NCBI GenBank assembly: GCA_016185505.1
Contig: JACPNL010000011.1
Coordinates: 1 to 14,466, forward strand
Length of the DNA: 14,466 nt
From: Candidatus Yanofskybacteria bacterium
Lineage (GTDB): Bacteria > Patescibacteriota > Minisyncoccia > 2-02-FULL-40-12 > GWA2-44-9
Direction: 5' to 3'
Shown here piece after piece: positions 1 to 14,466 of this stretch. The position numbers and the translations under genes were made by a program. Under the pieces are notes generated by a model. That model was not told the DNA's origin and ran no database searches. It was given only the letters and a program-made list of their open reading frames with translations. Position 1 is the first letter of the stretch. Every line of letters starts with the position of its first letter.

Positions 1-882
1 GGGAAGAATTATCTCTACATTCCCCACGGCCCGGTAGTAGATTTTTCAAATGCGCAAAGCGCAAAGCCGGAGGCAATTGAAAAATTCACTACCGGGCACG
101 GGCCGGAGATGTTGACTAAAAATTTTCAAGTTCAAGTTAAGAACGAGGTTGATAATTTTATGCGGTATCTTAAAAAGCTGGCAAGAGAAGAAAAATCAAT
201 TTTTGTGAAAATGGAACCTGCTTCCGATGTCGTTACGGAGACAATTTTCAGAAAAGGAATGAAGCGGTCAAAAAAAGAAATCCAGCCAGCAAAGTCAGTT
301 ATCCTTGATCTTTTCTTACCGGAAGATGAACTTTTGGCGCGGATGCACCACAAGACGAGGTATAATATCCGTCTCGCTGAGAAAAAAGGCCTGTGGCTGG
401 AAGAGTCAACCGACGTTGAAACATTCTGGAAGTTGCTCCAGAAGACCGCGAAGAAGGATAAGTTTTACACTCATGAAAAAAGTTATTACGAAAAACTTCT
501 GTCGTATTTTGCTCACGATCGTGAGAAAAATACGACAGAACTCTCAACACTACTGTTTTTTGTTTATTACAAAGACAAACCAATCGCCGGTGCAATAGTA
601 ATGTCGTATGGAGATACTGCATATTATCTGCACGGAGCGATGGACCGGAGTTACAAAGAACTAATGGCGCCGTATGCTTTGCACTGGGAGAATATAAAAT
701 TCTTGAAGCAAAAAGGATTCAAATACTACGATCTTTGGGGTATTGACGCGCAAAAGTGGCCCGGCGTTACCCGCTTCAAGCTCGGCTGGGGAGGCGATAC
801 AAAAGAATACCCCGGCTCGTTCGACATCCCTGTCTCAAAATTTTGGTATTTAATGTATAACCTTGCCAGAAAGGTATTTTAG
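1..882 (+). CDS. FemAB-family peptidyltransferase (peptidoglycan interpeptide bridge / aminoacyl-tRNA dependent); 5' partial, reading frame open to window start
   Basis: Frame 1 has no stop from position 1 to the annotated ATG at 109 (GKNYLYIPHGPVVDF...), so the gene continues upstream of the window. The C-terminal half carries FemAB-like segments (AYYLHGAMDRSYKELMAPYALHWENIKFLKQKGFKYYDLWGI). Stop TAG at 880-882. Confidence 0.55.
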   Translation, partial: GKNYLYIPHGPVVDFSNAQSAKPEAIEKFTTGHGPEMLTKNFQVQVKNEVDNFMRYLKKLAREEKSIFVKMEPASDVVTETIFRKGMKRSKKEIQPAKSVILDLFLPEDELLARMHHKTRYNIRLAEKKGLWLEESTDVETFWKLLQKTAKKDKFYTHEKSYYEKLLSYFAHDREKNTTELSTLLFFVYYKDKPIAGAIVMSYGDTAYYLHGAMDRSYKELMAPYALHWENIKFLKQKGFKYYDLWGIDAQKWPGVTRFKLGWGGDTKEYPGSFDIPVSKFWYLMYNLARKVF

Positions 883-1967: not shown

Positions 1968-3455
1968 ATGTTCAAAGAAGGATTGTTGGACAAAATTTTA
2001 AGAAATATCAAAAAACTGATACCGAAGTCGGTATTTGATTTTTTTGCGCCGGTTTATCATGCTACTTTAGCTTATGTCGGGGCTTTTTTGTACGGATTTC
2101 CATCACGTTCAATGAAGGTCATCGGTGTGACGGGAACTAAAGGCAAGTCAACGACGGTTTTTTTGATAAGTAAGATTTTGGAGGCGGCAGAATTAACGAC
2201 ATCGGAAGGCCAAAGGACTTCCGATGTCAATGTGGAGGAGCGCCCTCCACAAGGCGGGGTGGCGGCAATCGGGTCTCTCGGATATAAAATAAAAGATAAA
2301 GAATGGCCGAATACTCTGAAAATGACAATGCCCGGCCGGTTCAAATTGCAGAAATTCCTGGCCGAAGCCAAAAGAGCCGGATGCAAGTATGTGGTTCTTG
2401 AAGTGACTTCGGAGGGCATCAAACAAAAGCGCCATATGGGAGTAAAATTTGATTGTGCCGTGTTTACTAATCTGCACGAAGAGCATATTGAAAGTCACGG
2501 TTCTTTTAAAAATTACTATAAAGCCAAGCAGGAATTATTCAAAAAGACCTCAAATATTCACGTAATTAATGCCGATGATCCCCGCGTAGATTTGTTTGGG
2601 AACTTTCCGGCAAAGCATAAGATATTTTATGGATTGGAAAAAGGGGATTTGGTTGCCGGCAAAATTCAGTCCACGGAAAAAGGAACATCATTTGAACTTT
2701 ATGGCACGCGCTTTGACACTCATTTGGCCGGAGAGTTTAATGTTATGAATTGTCTGGCGGCGCTGGCGGTGGGGGCGATGTATAAGATTGATTTGCCCGC
2801 GATGAAACCGGTTTTGGAGTCAATTAAATTTATTCCGGGAAGGATGGAGTTCATACAGCGGGAGCCGTTTGGAGTGGTGGTAGATTATGCGCACACGCCA
2901 GATTCTTTGCGAAGCGTTTATCAAACGCTTCGCAAGAATCTGGCGCAACCAACAACCAACCCCGCACCAAGCTTATCCGCTGACCGCCATTCAGAAAGGG
3001 GGCGGGCTTGGAGCGGGGCAGGCAACCGACAACCAACAACAGGAAAATTGATTTGTGTTCTTGGTGCGGCGGGCGGGGGTAGAGATAAATGGAAAAGGCC
3101 CGAATTCGGAAGAATCGCGTCGGAATACTGCGATGAGATTATTTTGACGAATGAAGACCCCTATGATGAAAATCCCCAAAGCATCATCAAAGATATTGAA
3201 AGGGGATTTTCATCGAAATTTTCAATTTTCAATTTTCAATTTTCAAATAAATCCCAATTACCAAATCACAAAATAATTCTTGACCGTCGTGAGGCAATTC
3301 AAACTGCCTTGACAGATGCCGGGGAAGGTGATACCGTTATTATCACAGGGAAGGGTTCGGAGACGTCAATGGCCGTCGCGGGGGGCAGGAAGCTCCCTTG
3401 GTCGGACAAGGATGTCGTCCGTGAAGCTCTTCGACAACAATCCTCCTGCGCATAA
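1968..3455 (+). CDS. Mur ligase family protein, MurE-like (UDP-N-acetylmuramoyl-tripeptide synthetase-like) lacking the canonical N-terminal domain; contains low-complexity in-frame insertions
   Basis: P-loop GVTGTKGKSTT, central domain VVLEVTSEGIKQKRH ... FTNLHEEHIESHG, MurE-type DYAHTPDSL motif, GAAGGGRDKWKRPEFG, C-terminal ITGKGSE. Only about 50 aa precede the P-loop, against about 110 in MurE. Confidence 0.8.
   Translation: MFKEGLLDKILRNIKKLIPKSVFDFFAPVYHATLAYVGAFLYGFPSRSMKVIGVTGTKGKSTTVFLISKILEAAELTTSEGQRTSDVNVEERPPQGGVAAIGSLGYKIKDKEWPNTLKMTMPGRFKLQKFLAEAKRAGCKYVVLEVTSEGIKQKRHMGVKFDCAVFTNLHEEHIESHGSFKNYYKAKQELFKKTSNIHVINADDPRVDLFGNFPAKHKIFYGLEKGDLVAGKIQSTEKGTSFELYGTRFDTHLAGEFNVMNCLAALAVGAMYKIDLPAMKPVLESIKFIPGRMEFIQREPFGVVVDYAHTPDSLRSVYQTLRKNLAQPTTNPAPSLSADRHSERGRAWSGAGNRQPTTGKLICVLGAAGGGRDKWKRPEFGRIASEYCDEIILTNEDPYDENPQSIIKDIERGFSSKFSIFNFQFSNKSQLPNHKIILDRREAIQTALTDAGEGDTVIITGKGSETSMAVAGGRKLPWSDKDVVREALRQQSSCA
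3217..3244 (+). repeat. 4 x AATTTTC heptamer tandem repeat inside Mur ligase CDS
   Basis: Direct reading: aattttc aattttc aattttc aattttc (encodes FSIFNFQFS). Confidence 0.9.
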
Positions 3456-4641: not shown

Positions 4642-5142
4642 ATGGATATCGGGCGGCCACAACCAAATGACGAACCGAAACAGAGCGCAGAATTGTACCC
4701 TGCGGAATTTGCCGTTAGCAAAGTCGAAGCATCGCGGTTGCTTAAAAATTCAGGCCTGCCTTGGCTTTTGATAGTTCTGGTACTGGTACTTTTGGCTTTA
4801 TCTGTAAACATATTTAGACAGCCCGTTGCCTCGGATACGTCCGGTACTATCAGTTCATCTGTCGGGCCGACACCGGCGGTTCAGCCGAGGGTCTATACTG
4901 TTTCTTACAGGAACGGTGTTTTCAGTCCCACGAATCTAAGAATTCACGCCGGCGATACGGTGAGATTCAAGAATGAGAGTATATTTCCCATAAGAATAGT
5001 CGGAGACGATCTGGTCGGTTTCGATAGTATTGGTGACGTGCCCCAAGGAAGTTTTTTTGCTTTTACTTTTGCCGCTAGGGGAATATTCAGCTATCATAAT
5101 GAGAAGAGTCTCGACGAATCAGCTACGATAATAGTTCGATAA
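4642..5142 (+). CDS. Membrane-anchored cupredoxin-like (plastocyanin-fold-like) domain protein, no obvious Cu ligands
   Basis: TM helix LPWLLIVLVLVLLALSV, then a beta-rich domain YTVSYRNGVFSPTNLRIHAGDTVRFKNES...FSYH that resembles cupredoxin_1-like domains. The function call is weak. Confidence 0.35.
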   Translation: MDIGRPQPNDEPKQSAELYPAEFAVSKVEASRLLKNSGLPWLLIVLVLVLLALSVNIFRQPVASDTSGTISSSVGPTPAVQPRVYTVSYRNGVFSPTNLRIHAGDTVRFKNESIFPIRIVGDDLVGFDSIGDVPQGSFFAFTFAARGIFSYHNEKSLDESATIIVR

Positions 5143-5156
5143 TATGCGATACCAAT

Positions 5157-5218
5157 ATACTAATTCATACTAATGATACGAATAGTGTTTCGTTCTTCCA
5201 TTAGTATAATTAGTATGC
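5157..5218. repeat. Long imperfect inverted repeat (arms ATACTAATTCATACTAATG / CATTAGTATAATTAGTAT, 23-nt loop)
   Basis: The right arm (5199-5218) is the reverse complement of the left arm (5157-5175) apart from a one-nucleotide bulge. Each arm is itself a direct repeat of ATACTAAT. Confidence 0.7.
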
Positions 5219-5249
5219 ATTCGTATATTAGCATCGCGATAGTGTTAGC

Positions 5250-5417: not shown

Positions 5418-6247
5418 TTCGATTAGGGCCCTTACTATTTATCAAGGAAGTAGTTCTTTTTGGCCTTACGCTGGCTCTTGGTCTCTATACCGCTTATTAT
5501 TACTCTTTTTACTTTACCGATCTGGTTCAGAATGGAATGGTGAATTTTACGCCGGCTGATCTGATTATTTTGGCTATTTTGTTCGTCGCTATTTTCTTTG
5601 TGGCGCGGCACAAGAGGGTTGCCCGCTTTTCCTTCAGGTTCTTTCTTATATTGATCGTCTTTTCCGGAACTCAAGTTGTGTTGGGCACTATTCTGCCTTC
5701 GCCTTGGGACTTGTTGTTTGCGGTTATCTTTACTTTAATATTCTCTATCGGTATTAATGTGTTGGTTCACAATCTAGGTATTATTCTTGGAATTGCCGGT
5801 ATTGCGGCTGTATTCGGTCTCTCTATTTCAATTGAGTTCGGGCTTGTCCTGTTGGTTGTTCTTTCTTTATATGACATAGTGGCCGTTTATGTGACAAAGC
5901 ACATGGTGACTATGGCCAGAAGTATGGTCGAAGGCGGTGCGGTGTTTGGATTTTTAATTCCGTTTGAGTTCAAAGGATTTTTTTATGGAAGAGATGAGGC
6001 AAAGGCCGGAATAGGGGAGAATTTCATGATACTTGGTTCGGGAGATATCGGATTGCCGCTTATTTTTGCGGTTTCTCTGGTTAGGGTTTCTCTGATATCC
6101 GCGATAATTACGGCCACATTCTCTTTGCTGGGATTATTTATTACTCACCTTCTTTTTATAAACCAAGGACAGCGAAGGGCAATGGCGGCTTTGCCACCGA
6201 TCGCGACACTTACAATAATTGGTTACCTTGTAACCCAATTATTGTAA
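5414..6247 (+). CDS. Polytopic membrane protein, presenilin / signal-peptide-peptidase-like (A22 family-like) intramembrane aspartyl protease candidate
   Basis: About 8 TM segments. Candidate catalytic motifs sit in TM helices: LSLYDIVAVY (YD), ILGSGDIGLPLIF (GxGD) and AALPPIA (PAL-like). Confidence 0.45.
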   Translation: MIRLGPLLFIKEVVLFGLTLALGLYTAYYYSFYFTDLVQNGMVNFTPADLIILAILFVAIFFVARHKRVARFSFRFFLILIVFSGTQVVLGTILPSPWDLLFAVIFTLIFSIGINVLVHNLGIILGIAGIAAVFGLSISIEFGLVLLVVLSLYDIVAVYVTKHMVTMARSMVEGGAVFGFLIPFEFKGFFYGRDEAKAGIGENFMILGSGDIGLPLIFAVSLVRVSLISAIITATFSLLGLFITHLLFINQGQRRAMAALPPIATLTIIGYLVTQLL

Positions 6248-6388
6248 ATTGACCTAATTATACTAATTAACCTAATTATTCTAAATAATGCCCAATACCT
6301 AATCACCAAATGCCTAAAACAGCTTGGTCATTCGGTCATTAGAATTTATTTAGGTCAATTAGATTAATTAGAACAATTAGAATAATTT
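6248..6388. repeat. About 140-bp AT-rich palindromic intergenic element (copy A) built from 9-bp TAATTNNNC units in inverted arms; MITE-like
   Basis: Left arm ttgacc taattatac taattaacc taattattc taaataat. Right arm atttattta ggtcaatta gattaatta gaacaatta gaataatt. Strongly similar to 13350-13495. It directly abuts the ATG at 6389. Confidence 0.7.
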
Positions 6389-7804
6389 ATGAAACTTACT
6401 TTCTATGGTGGTGCTCGCCAAGTGACCGGAGCCAACTACTTGTTGGAGTTGGGCCCCGACGCAAGGTCGGGGTCAACAACCAAGTTGTTGGTTGATTGCG
6501 GGATGTTTCAGGGTTCAAGGTATGCGGAAGACCTGAACTATGAAAAATTTCCATATGATCCGGCGGAGATTAATTTTATTTTTATCACTCATAGTCATAC
6601 CGACCACGCTGGACGCTTGCCCAAGTTGTATAAAGAAGGATTCAGGGGCAAGGTCGTTGCGACAAACGCGACCCTTGATCTTATCAGAAAAGCTCTGCCG
6701 GACAACTTAAGATTGATAGAACAAGAAGCAAAAGATACTGGACGAGAACCACTGTTCTCTCTTGAGAACTTGGAAGGTGTTCTTAATTTGGTTCAGGGAG
6801 TTGATTATGAGGAAAATATTGAATTAGGTGGTGGTCTTGAAGTTAAATTACATGATGCCGGACACATATTGGGTTCTTCCATCGTGGAAATACGATGGAA
6901 GAACAAATCCGAAATCCGAAATCCGAAATCCGAAAATAATTCGAAACATCTTTACTTTACCGGTGATCTGGGGAATCCCCCGACACCCTTATTGAAATCG
7001 CCTTATTACCCCAATGATGCTGATTATGTCGTTATAGAGTCCGCCTACGGTTCAAGAACTCACGAGGATAAGGCCGAAAGAAAGAATATTTTACAGAAGA
7101 TCATAATTGAAACCATCCAAAGAGGTGGTGTGCTGACGATACCTTCGTTCGCGATGGAAAGAACGCAGGAACTTCTCTATGAACTCAATGGTCTGTTCAA
7201 CGACAATAAAATTCCCAAAGTACCCGTTTTTGTCGATTCTCCTCTGGCTACCAATTTGACCGAGGTGTACAGAAAGCATTCGGATTATTTCAATAAAGAA
7301 ACTATGTATATAATTAATTCCGGTGACGATATATTTAATTTTCCCGGGCTAAAATTCACTCGTACCACCGAAGAATCAAAACAGATAAACGATGTTACTC
7401 CGCCGAAGATAATAATTGCCGGCTCGGGAATGTCTACCGGCGGCCGGATATTGCATCACGAAAGGCGTTATCTGCAGGATCCGAATTCCACTATTCTGTT
7501 CATCGGTTATCAAGTAAAAGGTTCTTTGGGCAGGAGAATTTTGGATGAGGAAAAAGAGGTCAAAATATTCGGCGAAAAAGTTACCGTGAACTGCAAAGTG
7601 GAGGCGATAGGAGGATACTCCGCTCACGCCGACAGCGAAGGGCTTTTGGAATGGGTCAAAACCGCGAACAGCGAAGGTAAATTAAAAAAGGTATTTGTGG
7701 TGCAAGGCGAAGAGGATTCCTCATTGGCTCTCGCAAGAAAAATAGAAAGAGCGCTGGAAATTGATGCGGTGGTGCCGAAGCAAGGGGAAGGGTTCGAGTT
7801 GTAG
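6389..7804 (+). CDS. MBL-fold metallo-hydrolase, beta-CASP RNA-metabolising family (RNase J / CPSF-like ribonuclease)
   Basis: HSHTDHAG (HxHxDH), LVDCGMFQG, a beta-CASP region and C-terminal GGYSAHAD. 471 aa. Confidence 0.8.
   Translation: MKLTFYGGARQVTGANYLLELGPDARSGSTTKLLVDCGMFQGSRYAEDLNYEKFPYDPAEINFIFITHSHTDHAGRLPKLYKEGFRGKVVATNATLDLIRKALPDNLRLIEQEAKDTGREPLFSLENLEGVLNLVQGVDYEENIELGGGLEVKLHDAGHILGSSIVEIRWKNKSEIRNPKSENNSKHLYFTGDLGNPPTPLLKSPYYPNDADYVVIESAYGSRTHEDKAERKNILQKIIIETIQRGGVLTIPSFAMERTQELLYELNGLFNDNKIPKVPVFVDSPLATNLTEVYRKHSDYFNKETMYIINSGDDIFNFPGLKFTRTTEESKQINDVTPPKIIIAGSGMSTGGRILHHERRYLQDPNSTILFIGYQVKGSLGRRILDEEKEVKIFGEKVTVNCKVEAIGGYSAHADSEGLLEWVKTANSEGKLKKVFVVQGEEDSSLALARKIERALEIDAVVPKQGEGFEL
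6905..6932 (+). repeat. 4 x AAATCCG heptamer tandem repeat inside MBL-fold ribonuclease CDS
   Basis: aaatccg x4 (encodes SEIRNPKSE). Confidence 0.9.
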
Positions 7805-8032
7805 AGCGAAACTATCAAATAATTTTTTACGCCTTACGCTCCATTAACAAATCTTGCAATAATTTATCATTGTTCAGACAAAAATTTAGCACCCGTTCCT
7901 CCCTTCGGGATTTTCCGGCTAAATTTTTGGAAGATTACCTGAACAATTTCTAAATTATCTTGGATTTGTGATAAAGGAGCGTAAACGCTAGAAAAATTAC
8001 TTAACAGTTTCGCTCTTTGGATGCTTTGATTT
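7803..8032. repeat. Long palindromic element C1: about 40-bp inverted arms (GAGCGAAACTNNCAAATAATTTTTTANGCCTTNCGCTCC) enclosing a palindromic cargo capped by a UUCG hairpin
   Basis: Left arm 7804-7842 and right arm 7976-8015 are near reverse complements. The inner pairs ATTAACAAATCTTGCAATAATTTATCATTGTTCAG / CTGAACAATTTCTAAATTATCTTGGATTTGTGAT and AAAAATTTAGC / GCTAAATTTTT flank TCCCTTCGGGA. The start overlaps the TAG stop of the MBL gene. A second copy lies at 9695-10109. Confidence 0.7.
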
Positions 8033-8083: not shown

Positions 8084-8668
8084 TTACTTCTCCCAATTTC
8101 CGAGGCGGGGTGGGTTGTTGTTGGGCCACGTAAAGTGGCGTGGCCACCATGTGGCTTTACGCCAGTCGGCCAACATTACGAGGATTTTTACCAGCAATGG
8201 CTTGTTGTCGCGAGCTATCATCGCTATTGCGCAGGCGCGGTGCATTCCTTCGGCTATGCAAATGTCGCCGTTAGGCAGACGAGTGGCGGTTAGAGTTGTT
8301 TCCGTTCCGTTAAAATTATTCGCGATATCTCGTATATACCAGTGATTATGAACTCCCGGATGGGTGAGCAGGTCTTTGAGTCGCGGCGGCTGTTCGGGAA
8401 AAGAATTGTAGAACCATTTGCTCCAACCGTGGAACATTCCGCCTCGCCATTCGGGGATAGTTGCAAGCGGTTTGGGAACTTCGTAGAGTCCCCATTTTAA
8501 TTCTCGAGAAAACAACGGCGCATGGGTTTTCTTTCTCCATTCCTCCCACGATTTGTGCCCCTTTGCTTCCCAAAACGGTTTCCAGTGCTCAACACCTTCT
8601 TCCATCTTCCGCCAACTCTCAAAAACTTCATTAGGGGTCAGTGGTTTTATGAATTTTAATTCGTCCAT
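8084..8668 (-). CDS. Hypothetical Trp-rich protein with possible ParB/Srx-like (DGxHR-type) motif
   Basis: The only convincing minus-strand ORF (194 aa). PNGDICIAEGMHRACAIAMIARD resembles the ParB/sulfiredoxin-fold DGHHR region. Unusually rich in Trp. The overlapping plus-strand ORFs 8040-8345 are judged spurious. Confidence 0.45.
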   Translation of the reverse strand: MDELKFIKPLTPNEVFESWRKMEEGVEHWKPFWEAKGHKSWEEWRKKTHAPLFSRELKWGLYEVPKPLATIPEWRGGMFHGWSKWFYNSFPEQPPRLKDLLTHPGVHNHWYIRDIANNFNGTETTLTATRLPNGDICIAEGMHRACAIAMIARDNKPLLVKILVMLADWRKATWWPRHFTWPNNNPPRLGNWEK

Positions 8669-8757
8669 GTTCTTAAGTTATCACTTCTGTTTAATGAAGT
8701 AAAATAAAATTTCGGATACTCGATGAATTGAAATTAGCAAGTTTCTTGAACCTTTAT

Positions 8758-8799
8758 TCTTGTCTCAATTTTCCTCGTACGAGGAAAATTGAGACAAGA
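8758..8799. promoter_or_regulatory. 42-bp perfect palindrome in divergent intergenic region (candidate operator / cruciform)
   Basis: TCTTGTCTCAATTTTCCTCGTA | CGAGGAAAATTGAGACAAGA is perfectly self-complementary. It lies between the minus-strand gene start (8668) and the plus-strand gene start (8909). Confidence 0.6.
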
Positions 8800-8908
8800 G
8801 TTATTCGTATCCTATTTTTAGGGGGATAATTTTGAGTGAAGCAAAGTAAAGAGTGTGCTCTGGTTATCCCTTTGAAGAATTTGTTATAAGTTGTAAGATG
8901 AAATCATT

Positions 8909-9631
8909 ATGACAAACGATAAAAAGGGGCAACTCAACTTGCCGGCGTCTAAATTACCGGCAGAAAAACCCAAAAAAGGGGAGGATTTTAGAAAGTCGCT
9001 TCACTGGCGGGTGTTCAGGATACTTTCCGAATTTGTGGAGGGCTGGCAGTTTTTGGCCGATTTCAAAAAGACTGTTTCGTTTTTCGGTTCTGCTAGAACT
9101 CCCGAAGGCGATAAATGGTACGAGGAAGCGCGCAAGCTTGGGAAACTGGCGGCCGAGGGAGGATTTGCGGCAGTAACCGGTGGAGGTCCCGGCATTATGG
9201 AAGCGGGCAACCGCGGCGCCGTTGAGGGCAACGGCAAGTCCATTGGCATAAACATACAACTAGAAACGGAGCAAAGAATTAACCCTTATGTGCAGGAGAG
9301 TACCGCTTTCCACTATTTTTTTGTCAGAAAAGTCATGCTGTCATTTGCCGCTCAGGCGTATGTGTTTTTTCCCGGCGGGTTGGGAACGTTAGATGAGGTG
9401 TTTGAATTGGTGACTCTCATCCAAACCAAAAAAATATCAGAAAAGATCCCCGTTGTTCTGCTTGGAAAGGACTTTTGGGAGCCGATAGACAAGCTTTTAA
9501 GAGAAAATTTTTACGAAAAATATCAGACCATTGATAAAGAAGATCTCAATATTTATAAAATAGTCGACTCCGCCGAAGAGGCATATGAACTCATCAAAAA
9601 CGCCCCACCTAGAGAGGACTGGTATTATTAG
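8909..9631 (+). CDS. LOG-family protein (cytokinin riboside 5'-monophosphate phosphoribohydrolase-like; TIGR00730 / YvdD-type)
   Basis: VTGGGPGIMEAGNRGA and FPGGLGTLDEVFE are the LOG / lysine-decarboxylase-like family motifs. About 240 aa. Confidence 0.8.
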   Translation: MTNDKKGQLNLPASKLPAEKPKKGEDFRKSLHWRVFRILSEFVEGWQFLADFKKTVSFFGSARTPEGDKWYEEARKLGKLAAEGGFAAVTGGGPGIMEAGNRGAVEGNGKSIGINIQLETEQRINPYVQESTAFHYFFVRKVMLSFAAQAYVFFPGGLGTLDEVFELVTLIQTKKISEKIPVVLLGKDFWEPIDKLLRENFYEKYQTIDKEDLNIYKIVDSAEEAYELIKNAPPREDWYY

Positions 9632-9694
9632 TTGGTCAAGCCAGCTGAGCTGGCTCAACCCCACTAAATTTTGAGAAAAGGCATACTCTTGCAG

Positions 9695-10109
9695 TAGAGC
9701 GAAACTGCCAAATAATTTTTTAGCCTTCCGCTCCAGGAGAGCAGGATTCAAACTCCCATCGTCTTGAGAGACCCAAAAATGAGATGATTTCTTTGGTGTG
9801 ACGACGAAGATGTAGTTTAACACTACTTCGAGGAGGCACAACAAAGAAAGCGTCCATTTTTGGGCTCCCCCTTGGGGCGGGGCGGACTTACTTATCTGCT
9901 TCGTTGTCCAGATTCCTTCGGAATCGAGGATCCTCGATTGCTTCGCAATCGGGACTCGTCGCTTACGTACCGTTAAGGTACGCATCACTCCTCGCGCCTC
10001 GCATATAAGCAAGTCCGCTCCCGCTCAATTGATGCGAGTTTGAATCCTGCTCTCCTACGTCAACGCTAAAAAATTATCTGACCAGTTTCACTCTCTGGAT
10101 GCTTTGATT
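9695..10109. repeat. Palindromic element C2: same outer arms as C1, carrying a different, nested cargo
   Basis: TAGAGCGAAACTGCCAAATAATTTTTTAGCCTTCCGCTCC (9695-9734) matches the C1 left arm. ACGCTAAAAAATTATCTGACCAGTTTCACTC TCTGGATGCTTTGATT (10062-10109) matches the C1 right arm and tail. Confidence 0.7.
9735..10056. mobile_element. Nested 322-bp element with perfect 21-bp terminal inverted repeats (AGGAGAGCAGGATTCAAACTC ... GAGTTTGAATCCTGCTCTCCT), highly structured interior; MITE-like or structured ncRNA
   Basis: Perfect TIR 9735-9755 / 10036-10056. The interior holds several perfect hairpins: ATTCC-TTCG-GGAAT, CGATTGC-TTCG-GCAATCG, GTACC-GTTAA-GGTAC and the CGAGGATCCTCG palindrome. No ORF. 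Confidence 0.55.
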
Positions 10110-10324
10110 CAATCGATGATGTTGGAAAGAAACAAACTATTCATTCTCAAAATTTAGAGGGGTCTCGCTCCTCAACGCTAATTTTTCCGTGTTTTCCGAT
10201 TTTTCAGCGCTTCTGTGGTTAAAATTACCCAACGGCCTCGCTCCTCGGACGTTTTTATTTAATCGACGCAACAAGGGGTCTCGCTCCTTTGTGTTGTTGT
10301 GCTTGGTATTTTTGATGGGGCAGG

Positions 10325-10354
10325 TTGACAAAGCATAGCCCAATATGCTACAAT
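10325..10354 (+). promoter_or_regulatory. Near-consensus sigma70 promoter for nfeD-flotillin operon (TTGACA - 18 bp - TGCTACAAT) with palindrome AGCATA-N6-TATGCT in spacer
   Basis: TTGACA at 10325-10330. TACAAT at 10349-10354, preceded by an extended -10 TG. Inverted repeat AGCATAGCCCAATATGCT in the spacer. Confidence 0.55.
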
Positions 10355-10440
10355 ATTTTGGAAATCTCGAGTTGCCAGAAGGGCTCTCGAGATGGCAGTT
10401 CGTTCACAACTGTGGAGAGCCACGGAGAGAGGAAGGGGAT

Positions 10441-10968
10441 ATGCCACTGTTTATCGTCGCCGGGCTCATGGGGTTCCTGTTCTTCGTTGGGGCACTGATT
10501 TTCGGTGACCACGACGTCGGGCACGACCATGACTTTGATGGCGACCATGACCATGGAGGGTCGAGCGTGTTTTCGGTCTTCAATGTGTCATGGTTTCTCA
10601 TCGGGTTCGGCGGAATGGGGGCGGTTATCAGGGCCAATGACGTGGGGATGCCCGGAAGCACGATGTCCGGTCTCGCGACCGGTATTGCTTGCTGGGGCCT
10701 CGCTTTCTGCGTCATGCACCTGCTTGCAAAACAGCAGGGTGATTCAACCGTGACAGTCGCACGCATCATGAATGCGACTGGTACGGTCGTGATGTCTATT
10801 CCCGCAAACGGGGTGGGCAAGGTCCAGTGCAGTGTGGCCGGAAGCTTGCAAGAGTTTCTGGCTCGCTCGACGACACCGGTTTCGTTGTCGGAAGGTTCTC
10901 AAGTGAGAATCGTCGGCGATGCCGGTGGTGTGTACTTGGTGGAAGCTCAAACACAAGGAGGCAGGTGA
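10441..10968 (+). CDS. NfeD-like membrane protein (short NfeD / YuaF-like, partner of SPFH-flotillin)
   Basis: Start at the ATG at 10441 behind GAGGAAGGGG. The ATG at 10345 lies inside the -10 box. Two TM helices, a His/Asp-rich loop (DHDVGHDHDFDGDHDHGG) and a C-terminal beta domain. The stop overlaps the SD of the downstream flotillin gene. Confidence 0.65.
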   Translation: MPLFIVAGLMGFLFFVGALIFGDHDVGHDHDFDGDHDHGGSSVFSVFNVSWFLIGFGGMGAVIRANDVGMPGSTMSGLATGIACWGLAFCVMHLLAKQQGDSTVTVARIMNATGTVVMSIPANGVGKVQCSVAGSLQEFLARSTTPVSLSEGSQVRIVGDAGGVYLVEAQTQGGR

Positions 10969-10969
10969 C

Positions 10970-11269
10970 ATGGAGTTTTGGAAACAGCTCTCGGCAAACC
11001 TCGGATGGGTTATCGGAACAGTCCTACTGTTCATAGCCATCCTTGGTTCTCTTCGTTACGCGGCAAGCCGGTACAAGAAAGTGCCGCCAAGCCGCGTCGG
11101 GATCATCTACGGCCGTAAGCAGATCTATGAGATCCCGCAACAGGATGGAACCGTAAAGCAGGAGAAGCTTGGATTCCGCCTGCTCACCGGCGGCGGCGCG
11201 CTTGTCCTCCCGTTCTTGGAAGACTATGCCGAGTTGGACCTAAGCGCTCGACGTGATGATCGACGCTAG
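10970..11269 (+). CDS. Flotillin (SPFH-domain, FloT/YuaG-like) N-terminal fragment - interrupted by +1 frameshift near 11243-11256
   Basis: Strong SD AAGGAGG (10954-10960). MEFWKQ...VLLFIAILG TM helix, then GRKQ...FRLLTGGGALVLPFLEDYAELDLS matching flotillin (RGGGTFVFPVFEEVEKLSLEVM). The frame then runs into RRDDRR-stop. Confidence 0.7.
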   Translation: MEFWKQLSANLGWVIGTVLLFIAILGSLRYAASRYKKVPPSRVGIIYGRKQIYEIPQQDGTVKQEKLGFRLLTGGGALVLPFLEDYAELDLSARRDDRR

Positions 11270-12701
11270 AGGCACAGCTACTGTCGTGATCGGAACCGAT
11301 ACGTCGAGTCTCATCACTGCCGCTCGCAACTTCGAAGGTAAGAAGGAACAGGATATCAACCAGATTGCCCGGGAAAACCTGGAAGGCCAACTGCGGTCGA
11401 TTCTCGGCACCTTGACGGTTGAAGACCTGATCGGTGAGCGCAAGAAGCTCAATGAGGCGGTCTTGGAAGGTGCGGAGAGTGAGCTTCTGAAGCTCGGTCT
11501 GCGCATTTCCATCCTGACCATTCAGGAGATCACTGACCAGGTTAAGTACATCGAATCGCTGGGCAAAAAGCGTACCGCCGAAGTTCAGCGGGATGCTACT
11601 ATCGGCGAAGCCGAGGCGCAAAGCAAAGCCAAGATCGCGGCAAGCAACGCCACGAAAGAAGCCGAGACTGTCGCCGCGCAGAACGAAGTCAAGATCGCCG
11701 AGGCCAAGAAGGAGCGTGACGTTCAAGTTGCGCAATTCAAGGCATTGACCGATCGCGAAAAGGCGATTGCCGAACAGGCAGGCGCCATCGCGGCGGCCGA
11801 AGCGGACAAGACAGTGCGTCAGAGGAAGGTTGAGGCCGAAGCGGCCGAGACCACTGCGCGTATCCAACTCGCCGATCAGGAGACTGCTCGTGTCGAGAAG
11901 GAACTGCAGTTCCAGGTCATCAAACCGGCCGAAGCGCAGAAGCAGGCCGCGGTTATCAGGGCCGAGGGAAACAAGCAGACAGGTATCCTCGACGCCGAAA
12001 CCAAGAAGAGGCAACAGGTCATTCAAGCTGAAGCGGCTTTCGAAGCAGCTGCCAAGCAGGCCGACGCGACTCGAACCAAGGCTGAGGCTGATGGTGATGC
12101 TGCGGCAGCAATCGGCAAGGGCGACGCCGAAGCCGTACGTCTAAAGCTCACAGCTGAAGCCGATGGCGAGAAGGCAAAGCGTCTTGCCGCCGCCACGGGT
12201 ACCGAAGCTGAACTGCGGGCGGCTGCATCCGGCAAGGAAGCAGAACTGCTTGCAGAGGCACGCGGTGCTGAAGCAAAGCTCCTCGCAGAGGCCAAGGGTA
12301 AGGAACAGCTGGCTCTCGCGCTTGCCAAACTGGATCAGACAGGCAAACTTCTACAGGTGCTCGACGCAGCCCCCAAGGTTGCAGAGGCCCTGGGCGAAGC
12401 TCTCGCCAAGGCGCTCGGGCCCGACGGCCTTGCCAACGTGTTCGGCCAGATGGCCGCTCCGCTCGGCAGTGTTGACTCGATCCGGATGTATGATTTCGGC
12501 GGGAATGGCCATAACGGTAATGGTGCCGGATCGTTGGCCAAGTATGCCAACATCACACCGGAGCTGTTCTTCAATTTCGTCTCGAAGGCGACGGCACTGG
12601 GTTTCGGGTCTTTGCTCGAGAAGGTCGGGCTGACCTCCGAGATTCTGGACGACATGACAACTTCGGTTTCAACAGGGGCCGATGCATCCGAATCGAAGTA
12701 G
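11253..12701 (+). CDS. Flotillin C-terminal portion (SPFH core, EA-rich flotillin coiled-coil repeats, C-terminal domain); continues the 10970 frame after +1 shift (frame open from 11244)
   Basis: LDVMIDARGTATVVIG...ITDQVKYIESLGKKRTAEVQRDATIGEAEAQSKAKIA aligns with B. subtilis FloT. Long AEA/EAKA repeats follow. Confidence 0.8.
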   Translation: MMIDARGTATVVIGTDTSSLITAARNFEGKKEQDINQIARENLEGQLRSILGTLTVEDLIGERKKLNEAVLEGAESELLKLGLRISILTIQEITDQVKYIESLGKKRTAEVQRDATIGEAEAQSKAKIAASNATKEAETVAAQNEVKIAEAKKERDVQVAQFKALTDREKAIAEQAGAIAAAEADKTVRQRKVEAEAAETTARIQLADQETARVEKELQFQVIKPAEAQKQAAVIRAEGNKQTGILDAETKKRQQVIQAEAAFEAAAKQADATRTKAEADGDAAAAIGKGDAEAVRLKLTAEADGEKAKRLAAATGTEAELRAAASGKEAELLAEARGAEAKLLAEAKGKEQLALALAKLDQTGKLLQVLDAAPKVAEALGEALAKALGPDGLANVFGQMAAPLGSVDSIRMYDFGGNGHNGNGAGSLAKYANITPELFFNFVSKATALGFGSLLEKVGLTSEILDDMTTSVSTGADASESK

Positions 12702-12714
12702 CTCGTTCATTCAT

Positions 12715-12748
12715 AGAGGTCGGGGTAACAACCCCGACCTCTATTCTT
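12715..12748 (+). terminator. Terminator-like 12-bp perfect hairpin after flotillin
   Basis: AGAGGTCGGGGT-AACA-ACCCCGACCTCT followed by ATTCTT (weak U-tract). Confidence 0.5.
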
Positions 12749-13349: not shown

Positions 13350-13495
13350 CCCAATTATTCTAATTATACTAATTATTCTAATTACTCTAAATAATGACTA
13401 ATCCCCAATCATTAAATGACCAAATCGATTTAGTCATTGAGTCGTTGGGATTTATTTAGGTCAATTAGGTTAATTAGAATAATTAGGTTAATTTA
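13350..13495. repeat. Copy B of the about 140-bp TAATTNNNC-unit palindromic element (see 6248-6388)
   Basis: ctaattatactaattattctaattactctaaataatg ... atttatttaggtcaattaggttaattagaataattaggttaatt. The central part contains the near-perfect palindrome AATGACCAAATCGATTTAGTCATT. Confidence 0.7.
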
Positions 13496-13537
13496 TTGCC
13501 CTGTTTGGTTCCTGTGCTTTGTGTTTTAGCTATGTAA

Positions 13538-14466
13538 GATTTTAAAATCAACAACATCCTTATCCCCGAAGAGCTTCCTCTTATCGCTCTGAAAAACACC
13601 GTCTTATTCCCAAAGGCGGTTATTCCGCTTATCGTTCAGCGGCCCAAATCGGTCAGCGCTTTGGAGTACGCTCATTTAACTGATCGGCTGGTGTTTTTTG
13701 CCACCCAGAGAAGCACCGAAGACGATGTGAACAAAAAAGATATTTTCACTGTGAACAAAAAAGATATTTTCACTACCGGCGTTATCGGCAGGATAATCTC
13801 CGTTCTCAAATTACCCGACGGTTCTTCCAAAGTTGATGTTGAGGGTTTGGTCAGAGCAAGGATAACGGAAATTACCAACGAAGAACCATTCTTCAGGATA
13901 AAGGCCGCTCCGTTCTCGTTGACGGTCAGGGATAGTTTAGAAGAAAAAGCGCTCCTTCGGAAAGCCATAGAGCAGTTTCGAATGATCTCGGAAGTAAGAG
14001 CATTTCCAACAATCCTTCCCGAAATTATATATATGATGTCGCAGATCAAAGACACCGAGCATATTATAAGTTTGATGGCGGTTAATTCCGGTTTAGAAAT
14101 AGAAGATCAGCAAAATGTCCTTGAAATGGAGAGCGCGATAGACGCCTTACGCCAACTAAACACGTATCTGGCCAGAGAGTCGGAATTATTGGAAGCCGAG
14201 AAAAAAGTCGCTAAGGAAACCAAAAAACAACTCGGCAAGATGCAGAAGGAATTGTTTTTGCGGGAGCAACTCAAAAGCATAGAGAAAGAATTGGGCGTTG
14301 ATGACGAGAAAGGCGAAATGGAAACGATAAAACACAAGATAGCCGCCGCGGGAATGCCCAAAGAAGTTGAAGAAAAGGCAAGCAAAGAACTTCATCGTCT
14401 AGGCAAAATGCCGCCATTCAATCCCGAGGTCTCATATCTTCGCACCTATCTTGACTTGATGGTTGA
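13538..14466 (+). CDS. lon: ATP-dependent Lon protease, N-terminal (LON substrate-binding) domain onward; 3' partial (runs off window); start codon unresolved
   Basis: LPLIALKNTVLFPKAVIPLIVQRPKSV ... LKLPDGSSKVDVEGLVRARI is the canonical Lon N-domain. The frame is open from 13538 to the window end. There is no in-frame ATG, GTG or TTG before the LPL motif. The ATG at 13532 is followed immediately by TAA. Confidence 0.8.
13727..13774 (+). repeat. Perfect 24-bp tandem duplication inside lon (VNKKDIFT x2)
   Basis: gtgaacaaaaaagatattttcact occurs twice in direct tandem. Confidence 0.9.

Follow-up and report, generated by a model that had tools for sequence, protein, structure and literature searches.

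Genes and candidate promoters around the palindrome

The stretch of DNA analysed in this study (the window; a complete contig of 14,466 nucleotides from a metagenome-assembled genome of Candidatus Yanofskybacteria, Patescibacteria/CPR) contains a 42-bp palindrome within a divergent intergenic region of 240 nt, since the flanking reading frames start at 8668 on the minus strand and at 8909 on the plus strand (Table 1). The palindrome is separated by 90 nt from the start codon of a gene for a hypothetical protein and by 110 nt from that of a LOG gene. An earlier note on this DNA had placed the palindrome between two divergent gene starts, and this is borne out by homologue alignments and by the starts of orthologues, with which the start of the LOG gene agrees (the orthologue in the related locus L001 is 93% identical).

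The hypothetical protein of 194 amino acids has no family match in Pfam, NCBIfam or PADLOC, and its own family is restricted to Patescibacteria. The family alignment (A2) contains invariant Trp residues and an E-G-x-H-R motif, invariant as EGMHR, which presumably resembles the DGxHR motif of the ParB/sulfiredoxin type.

Candidate promoter elements can be read from the sequence in front of both genes. The extended −10 element TGtTATAAG of the LOG gene is conserved in L001, and the −10 element GATAAC of the 194-aa gene appears there as GATAAT. Based on these elements the center of the palindrome would lie approximately 118 nt upstream of the predicted transcription start of the LOG gene and approximately 108 nt upstream of that predicted for the 194-aa gene. 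The palindrome overlaps neither likely core promoter in the window.

Table 1. Positions of the features in the window, and location or core of the related palindromes at other loci.
Feature	Position	Strand	Remarks
FemAB insertion 1	73-97, mirrors 29-53		24 aa, unique to the window
FemAB insertion 2	519-540, mirrors 497-518		6 aa, common to close relatives
194-aa hypothetical protein gene	8084..8668	-	transcribed away from the palindrome; start set by alignment with 24 homologues
Candidate −10 of the 194-aa gene promoter, GATAAC	8677..8682	-	sequence reading
DUF218 promoter-block relic	8716..8744	-	by-eye reading of L006 versus the window; gene lost in the window
42-bp perfect palindrome, no spacer	8758..8799	.	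orphan member of the TTGTCTCA-W-TTT-N4-CGTACG palindrome family
Left outer motif TTGTCTCA	8760..8767	+	most conserved half-site portion in the subtype of this palindrome
Central hexamer CGTACG	8776..8781	.	on the dyad axis
Right outer motif TGAGACAA	8790..8797	-	mirror image of 8760-8767
Candidate extended −10 of the LOG promoter, TGtTATAAG	8882..8890	+	sequence reading and blocks conserved in L001
LOG / TIGR00730 (Lysine_decarbox) gene, 240 aa	8909..9631	+	transcribed away from the palindrome
Copy in L037	between dnaE and thrS		
Copy in L066/L056	38 nt after the 5S rRNA gene		before the promoter of a membrane-protein/FtsW operon
Two copies in L040	bracket the PaaX_M gene		L040a between gene starts
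Core in L093			CCCTGTCTCAACTTTGACCGTACGGTCAAAGTTGAGACAGGG
Core in L098			CTTGCTCAACTTTTAGCGTACGCTAAAAGTTGAGCAAG
Core in L095			TTCTTAAAT..AGCGTACGCT..ATTTAAGAA
Core in L100			TGTCTTAAACTTTAGCGTACGCTAAAGTTTAAGACA
Core in L106			TTGTCTCATTTTTTATCGTACG...
L102 (distant)			imperfect repeat, center CGATCG
L104 (distant)			imperfect repeat, center CGATCG

Sequence, symmetry and folding

The palindrome reads TCTTGTCTCAATTTTCCTCGT followed by ACGAGGAAAATTGAGACAAGA, i.e. two arms of 21 nt which are 100% complementary and joined without a spacer. Re-reading of the sequence confirms the zero mismatches over 21+21 bp that had been claimed earlier; only the printed split into 22 and 20 letters was one base off, and positions 8778 and 8779 stand on either side of the dyad axis. 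When half-sites are searched for in all 14,466 nt, the two arms are the sole matches at up to three mismatches, and dinucleotide shuffles of the window give no match at all (0/200). This corresponds to one copy per 14.5 kb.

As RNA or as DNA, a strongly stable hairpin of 21 pairs (7 GC) can be formed from either strand, with the tails GTTATTCG and ATAAAGG. The window has no match in Rfam at the gathering score; at relaxed thresholds the palindrome region matches generic hairpin models (miRNA precursors) only, and ARAGORN reports nothing that accounts for it.

The outer motif is identical in L040, L037, L066, L001 and L106, and in the alignment of palindromes (A5) its columns C7, T8 and A10 are invariant. 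The center CGTACG is invariant across all close types of the family and becomes CGATCG in the distant types. A −10-like hexamer beside the palindrome was considered as a part of the element and rejected: it is a perfect TATAAT in L040 and L037, and weak in the window, L001 and L066.

The orthologous locus and the loss of a neighboring gene

A relative represented by L001-L004 possesses the same pair of LOG and 194-aa genes (93% and 77-83% protein identity) with the palindrome at the same place, and L083 holds the orthologous copy as well. Between the palindrome and its orthologue 36 of 42 positions are identical (86%), compared to flanks with 65% and 56% identity and four-fold degenerate sites with 56-60%; one of the differences is a mirrored change of A-T to T-A. 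Judging from these identities, the orphan palindrome is under constraint in two lineages.

In a third relative (L005-L007) the palindrome is absent, and a DUF218 gene sits between the LOG and the 194-aa gene. The window has kept a relic of the promoter block of this gene, in which the −35 element TTGCTA is retained and the −10 element has decayed to TATCCG. Common to L006 and the relic is AAACTTGCTAATTT[C/T]AATT[C/T]ATCG, a correspondence found by eye, as the MAFFT alignment (A3) left both stretches unpaired. L001 in turn retains a stretch beyond the DUF218 terminator, and its deletion edge lies exactly at the edge of the palindrome. The relic in the window together with the post-terminator stretch in L001 indicates that the intergenic region is the scar of a gene loss in which the palindrome alone was kept: the neighboring relic DNA was lost differentially between the lineage of the window and L001 while the palindrome was retained in both. 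The LOG locus of L006, a relative sampled together with L093, lacks a cognate site, so that membership in a potential regulon is not conserved.

L006 further contains a 33-nt insertion (1675-1707; also L005 209-241) with a different perfect palindrome, ACCCTTACACCAAAA-A-TTTTGGTGTAAGGGT, accompanied by a 5-bp duplication of TTTAC. It is located in the promoter region of the orthologue of the 194-aa gene, and the site is empty in the window and in L001.

A dispersed family of palindromes

The pattern CTTGTCTCANTTTTYCTCG was scanned against 241 million metagenome records. Palindromic copies occur at the non-orthologous loci L037, L040 (two copies) and L066/L056, in addition to the orthologous L001/L083. 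Half-site copies elsewhere, which the earlier note had considered, thus exist at other loci of related genomes, while the remaining matches are single half-sites, most of them chance occurrences in unrelated organisms; the one match in a viral scan was also judged to be due to chance. The note had also allowed for a larger repeat family with no regulatory pattern. The family is real, and its copies follow a clear layout pattern.

The contigs which carry the copies resemble the window in GC content (42-43%) and tetranucleotide composition (r = 0.95-0.97). The exact pattern is found at four loci in the Ga0210057 sample and at one (L056) in a sister sample, once per 67-kb contig. Among the family copies half-sites never occur singly, 19-21 nt per arm are shared with the palindrome of the window, and the differences between copies of the same subtype are few and mirrored in both arms. 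Around six copies no direct repeats that could represent target-site duplications were found, and an internal segment is absent. A PaaX_M gene as in L040 was found neither in the window nor at the other orphan loci. A tblastn match to PaaX_M in L014 turned out to be spurious, being weak and antisense inside ligA, and a tRNA guessed beside L040a was not confirmed.

Palindromes on both sides of PaaX_M genes

In L040 the two copies flank a gene for a protein of 176 amino acids. Around each of seven further homologues of this protein (76% to ~30% identity) there is likewise one palindrome or inverted repeat on either side, with one core per locus, so that paired flanking palindromes are present in 8/8 homologous loci examined, and the core differs between loci (Table 1). 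Ten of 13 long palindromes in these loci lie within 160 nt of the gene ends, in an area which covers 4% of the sequence (P = 3.5e-12); the background density in other CPR loci is 0.1 palindromes per kb.

In an alignment of 13 palindromes 96% of the mirrored cells are paired, and changes on both sides are observed at 16 of 21 positions, which is reached by none of the shuffles (0/500). G-U intermediates are nearly absent among the 273 pair cells, which argues against selection at the RNA level. The last residues of the predicted recognition helix, which precedes the wing, partition according to the outer motif: NLKRSG goes along with GTCTCA, NLKQRG with GCTCAA and NL(E/K)QQ with TCTTAA.

L040 and L093 contain the module in the same gatCA - gene - ligA context with 64% protein identity, therefore the module was inherited vertically; between them both flanking copies changed together with the protein. 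The paralogous modules are found in unrelated contexts (gatCA/ligA, TatD/LeuRS, PriA, PGK, ArgRS/IleRS, DnaE/L32). The upstream copy in L100 overlaps the promoter TTGACA-17-TAAACT of the regulator gene, and the upstream copy in L040 begins 5 nt after TGCTATAAT. As far as promoters can be predicted from sequence, these are classical repressor positions.

The downstream copies in L040, L093, L098 and L106 lie between convergent genes and have longer arms of 27-30 nt. At gene 3' ends the arms run into copy-specific sequence (30+30 in L040, 29+29 in L095, 27+27 in L098). The downstream copy in L098 is followed by a T-tract. That of L106 is imperfect only in the four nucleotides which vary between loci, with outer motif and center intact.

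Translation genes are frequent neighbors of the palindromes or the PaaX_M genes (L037, L093, L095, L098, L102, L040), including gatCA, a MetRS-type synthetase, LeuRS, ArgRS, IleRS, GluRS, ThrRS, fmt/def, 5S rRNA and L32. This neighborhood may be a hint towards the regulon, or simply a consequence of which genes tiny genomes contain. We also observed that public assemblies are disturbed at these sites: L096 is a fold-back chimera of approximately 10 kb centered on the downstream palindrome of the PaaX_M gene, and the contig of L106 (1-31) breaks inside the upstream palindrome.

The PaaX_M protein

The protein encoded in L040 matches Pfam PaaX_M ("PaaX central Cas2-like domain") with 3e-25. A sequence profile search of the PDB retrieved E. 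coli PaaX (8a39), PadR and Cas2. Its AlphaFold model (pLDDT 80) consists of a helix-wing-helix part followed by a ferredoxin-like domain, and Foldseek returned 8a39 as the best match for this model, then Cas2 and IdeR/DtxR. The Cas2-like domain retains the Cas2 motif Asp (FDIPE) and QKS.

An assignment as true PaaX was rejected, as the equivalog TIGR02277 scores 25-28 bits compared to a cut-off of 264 and only PaaX_M is present, without the PaaX_C effector domain. It is no true Cas2 either: that model covers residues 97-149 only (27 bits, cut-off 24.5), and the protein carries a further winged helix-turn-helix (wHTH) at its N-terminus. Neither cas1 nor a CRISPR array, beside which a stand-alone Cas2 of ~90 aa is encoded, was found at the PaaX_M loci examined. 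NCBI names small CPR proteins with wHTH and PaaX_M "CRISPR-associated endonuclease Cas2" or [quoted passage not shown]; the records so named (P0342, P0341, P0061, P0068) correspond to neither definition, and a CRISPR or paa context is absent.

The family comprises at least 4,780 clusters at 50% identity with scores below 1e-10; among the best 150, every length falls within 128-241 aa. One member from Ca. Yanofskybacteria, MBI2674744.1, is 88% identical to the L040 protein. Its accession number is 317 away from that of the FemAB protein of the window (MBI2674427.1), and because the numbers are this near the gene is probably located in the same metagenome-assembled genome as the window, on another contig. 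The genome of the window thus probably carries a gene for the cognate protein.

Fold-back mutation in the same contig

The FemAB-family coding sequence at the beginning of the window (1-882) contains two in-frame insertions, each of which repeats the native coding sequence next to it in inverted form (Table 1). Their form is the signature of fold-back or template-switch mutation, as read from the sequence. This type of mutation is known from quasipalindromes in E. coli, where imperfect inverted repeats are converted into perfect ones. The likeness to quasipalindrome mutagenesis comprises both the inverted copies in FemAB and the copy-specific arm extensions of the palindromes; it concerns a mutational process and not a function. 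To our knowledge such a high visibility of fold-back mutation in this lineage, coding sequence included, has not been described.

The palindrome of 22+22 nt at 497-540, with the center CGATCG, was considered as a second family member and rejected, since the protein alignment identifies it as a fold-back insertion of local coding sequence. The FemAB insertions are reminiscent of Rickettsia palindromic elements, but they were generated locally by fold-back. The coding sequence of the Mur ligase (1968-3455) contains palindromes at 2198-2228 and 2904-2938 with 13-14 matching pairs per arm, which adjoin unusual low-complexity segments of the protein (TSEGQRTSDVNVEERPPQGG; AQPTTNPAPSLSADRHSERGRAWSGAGNRQPTTG) and may be further fold-back insertions.

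Other repeats and features of the window

The window contains a number of further repeats. An element of approximately 510 nt (9650-10170) is closed by nested inverted repeats, has a folding energy of −246 kcal/mol (z = −16.5) with many small hairpins of UUCG/GNRA type, and gives no match to Rfam families, tRNA or tmRNA. At 7801-8031 there is a shorter relative which shares its ends (GTAGAGCGAAACTnnCAAATAATTTTTTA), and at 10208-10259 a partial third copy, so that the pair of 194-aa and LOG genes is bracketed by two copies. The element could be MITE-like or a large novel structured RNA. It is directly followed by a block (10345-12700) with 57-61% GC compared to ~42% elsewhere, in which genes for an NfeD-like membrane protein and for an SPFH/flotillin protein are located and at which the synteny with L001 stops. 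This block may represent horizontally acquired DNA.

A 14-bp palindrome, TATGATATATCATA, occurs twice (1370-1383, 1880-1893) around a Trp-repressor-like gene (1417-1854). The distance is 34 nt to the start of this small regulator gene and 26 nt from its stop, and the Mur ligase gene follows after 75 nt. The layout of site, gene and site is the same as in the PaaX_M genes. Additional repeats are an intergenic AT-rich repeat of 144 nt (6247-6390 and 13353-13496, 81% identical) with TAATTA-like units and internal dyad symmetry, an inverted repeat at 5146-5237 with 38-nt arms (84% complementary) after a gene ending at 5142, a hairpin of 14-16 pairs at 12713-12744 after the flotillin-like gene, and an exact tandem 24-mer at 13726-13773 (TGTGAACAAAAAAGATATTTTCAC, two times).

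A proposed orphan recognition site of a PaaX-like protein

With moderate confidence, we regard the palindrome as an orphan recognition site, an operator or an insulator, of the PaaX-like protein family. That the protein recognizes the palindrome is suggested by association, namely by the site flanking the gene at all eight homologous loci. The suggestion of the earlier note that the palindrome is an operator for a dimeric regulator thereby receives substantial, if indirect, support, as the same palindrome brackets the gene of a winged-helix, PaaX-like protein and co-varies with it across the eight loci; binding itself is deduced from these patterns. The other two options of the note, a cruciform-forming site and a site of recombination or integration, are less likely readings.

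The authors propose the following mechanism. A PaaX-like protein of approximately 176 aa, with a winged helix-turn-helix and a Cas2-like dimerization domain, would be encoded elsewhere in the genome by a gene that is itself bracketed by the same palindrome; for the gene of MBI2674744.1 we expect two palindromes of the form TTGTCTCA(A/T)TTTnnnnCGTACG. The symmetric dimer would contact the mirrored outer motifs TTGTCTCA and TGAGACAA and the CGTACG at the center. From a position halfway between the LOG and the 194-aa promoters, it could act as a shared operator or as a roadblock or insulator for both units. At a distance of about 108-118 nt, modulation or insulation of the divergent units would be more plausible than occlusion of RNA polymerase. 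The argument is weakest where it presumes an effect of the palindrome on the transcription of the LOG and the 194-aa gene.

Recognition by a protein is insufficient to explain the perfection of the palindrome, given the mirrored variation within one subtype and the copy-specific extension of the arms. Fold-back (template-switch) mutation, by which an imperfect inverted repeat becomes a perfect one, would account for the symmetry over the full 42 bp and is probably what keeps it perfect. A requirement for extrusion of the site as a hairpin may contribute as well.

Several observations stand against the operator reading. The palindrome overlaps neither likely core promoter of the window, its outer motifs are spaced differently from those of the E. 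coli PaaX site, and variation within a subtype is mirrored in both arms, which recognition by a protein does not by itself call for. The protein has no PaaX effector domain and scores far below the PaaX equivalog cut-off, and the LOG locus of L006 is without a cognate site. Between convergent genes an operator controls nothing, and the long arms of the copies found there resemble terminator hairpins. One orphan copy lies 38 nt after a 5S rRNA gene. The opinion of the earlier note that the position argues against a terminator holds for the copy of the window, beside which both genes start, and cannot be extended to the family: because of the sister copies after the 5S rRNA gene and between convergent genes, a use as hairpin or terminator is conceivable for other members.

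Alternative explanations

The palindrome could instead be a structural repeat similar to REP sequences, which works as an RNA or single-stranded DNA hairpin on either strand and has spread to several intergenic sites. It might then serve as a bidirectional terminator or insulator independent of a U-tract, as a stabilizer of RNA ends or as an RNase III site; the PaaX_M gene might use the palindromes as its own 5' and 3' hairpins, or the protein might bind the hairpin form. We regard this as unlikely, although several features agree with it: the perfect complementarity of both strands with mirrored changes even within one subtype, the strong stability of the fold, the extension of the arms at gene 3' ends (L040, L095, L098), the copies after the 5S rRNA gene and between convergent genes, the T-tract behind the downstream copy of L098, and the presence of unrelated long perfect palindromes at gene ends in the same genomes. 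The copy of the window and L040a, however, are located between gene starts and not at gene ends, most copies lack a T-tract, and the copy number is low (the four loci in Ga0210057 and L056, one per 67-kb contig). The near absence of G-U intermediates points in the same direction, the imperfection of the L106 copy is confined to the variable four nucleotides in a pattern that fits protein contacts, and the type-specific core tracks the protein sequence.

Rather improbable, in our opinion, is a scar of recombination or integration. Palindrome, gene and palindrome would form an excisable cassette, and the orphan would be a solo site left behind or a target; the flanking palindromes are direct and inverted repeats at once, and a protein with a winged helix and a Cas2-like domain could take part. 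Paralogous modules in unrelated housekeeping contexts would be in agreement with such mobility, as would the retained Cas2 motif Asp (FDIPE) and QKS, the loss from the window of the DUF218 gene present in L006, the L001 deletion which stops exactly at the palindrome edge, and the different 33-nt palindrome inserted with a TTTAC duplication upstream of the L006 orthologue. Against it speak the missing target-site duplications around the copies, the lack of a recombinase or transposase adjoining any copy, the vertical inheritance of the module (L040/L093) and the constraint on the orphan in two lineages. In a related version, to which we attribute the same low probability, the hairpin or cruciform of the repeat is the substrate of the protein, which nicks it, recombines it or excises the cassette between flanking copies, and the orphans are solo or target sites. 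If true, the wHTH and Cas2-like proteins of CPR bacteria with their cognate perfect palindromes of 36-60 bp would represent a system of protein and repeat that has not been described before, a mobile module of REPtron or integron type on a Cas2-fold protein, with a bearing on the association of Cas2 with palindromic repeats.

It is more doubtful still that the palindrome is a neutral by-product, made and perfected by fold-back errors of replication and functionless at this place. The two fold-back insertions in the FemAB gene of the same contig and the many unrelated perfect palindromes in relatives demonstrate a potential source. A fold-back event de novo copies local sequence, whereas the palindrome shares 19-21 nt per arm with other loci, and its conservation of 86% compared to ~58% at neutral sites, with differential loss of the relic DNA nearby, does not fit a neutral sequence.

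An ordinary intrinsic terminator of a flanking gene, with one of the gene calls misoriented, can practically be dismissed: a consensus scan of the plus strand lists the palindrome among terminator-like sequences (20 stem pairs with TTATTCGTAT behind them), but the orientations and starts of both genes are confirmed by homologue alignments and synteny, the tail does not amount to a T-tract, the AT-rich stem exceeds those of intrinsic terminators by far, and a canonical example from this lineage looks different (GCCCGC-TTCCCC-GCGGGC plus TTTTTT in L006).

Comparison with known systems

The closest parallel to a recognition site of a PaaX-like protein is PaaX itself. E. coli PaaX binds TGATTC(N27)GAATCA, an inverted repeat of 39 bp, and represses its own promoter by overlap (PMC9493321). 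PaaX of E. coli and Pseudomonas and the CPR protein have an N-terminal winged helix and a central Cas2-like dimerization domain in common, and both the PaaX operator and the palindromes of the family are inverted repeats of similar span (39 bp compared to 40-42 bp; PMC9493321). The outer motifs are 30 bp apart from center to center in the palindrome, compared to 33 bp in the E. coli PaaX site. A promoter overlap as known from PaaX is predicted for the regulator's own gene in L100, and in L040 the upstream copy begins 5 nt behind TGCTATAAT, whereas the likely promoters in the window are ~108 and ~118 nt away from the palindrome. The CPR protein is smaller (176 aa compared to 316 aa) and lacks the C-terminal effector domain. 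The palindrome of the window is palindromic over its full length with a conserved CGTACG, the PaaX operator only in its two 6-bp ends, and unlike PaaX the CPR site is found on both sides of the regulator gene and outside a phenylacetate pathway context.

REP sequences and REPtrons provide a second parallel: a dispersed extragenic palindrome, two copies of which bracket the gene of a plausible recognizing protein, with repeats specific to each paralogue. REPs, however, are imperfect, carry a GTAG head and number tens to hundreds of copies, whereas the present family has few copies with perfect arms of 19-30 nt and no GTAG. A REPtron brackets a RAYT transposase of HUH Y1 type; the bracketed CPR gene encodes a wHTH and a Cas2-like domain without HUH/Y1 motifs, and its module is syntenic across species, unlike REPtrons.

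The parS sites of ParB are likewise few and near-identical palindromes in a genome, some beside the gene of the binding protein and others scattered; a parS is 16 bp long, the ParB family is unrelated to the PaaX_M protein, and clustering near the origin is not apparent for the present palindromes. The attC sites of integron cassettes are comparable as palindromic sites which bound single genes, could recombine and possibly adopt hairpin forms, but attC sites pair imperfectly, with extrahelical bases, and depend on a neighboring integrase and on attI; none of these is seen at loci of the present type. A MITE or another insertion element would have a target-site duplication and, around an internal segment, terminal inverted repeats, whereas the six copies have neither flanking direct repeats nor an internal segment.

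Implications for Patescibacteria

The module of site, gene and site in a large CPR protein family is undescribed, and our search of the literature yielded no relevant work on palindromes or PaaX-like proteins of CPR bacteria. Gene regulation is almost entirely unexplored in Patescibacteria/CPR, which are not growable alone. Here a single palindrome points to a large unstudied protein family, the members of which are routinely mislabelled as Cas2 or PaaX, and every PaaX_M member examined has its own readable and co-evolving DNA site flanking the gene on both sides. Fold-back mutation is moreover exposed as a visible force in these genomes, including coding sequence. If the protein binds these sites, the family would offer a ready-made code of protein-DNA recognition, regulons would be predictable straight from metagenomes, and the sites would account for the long perfect palindromes at which CPR assemblies break or fold back.
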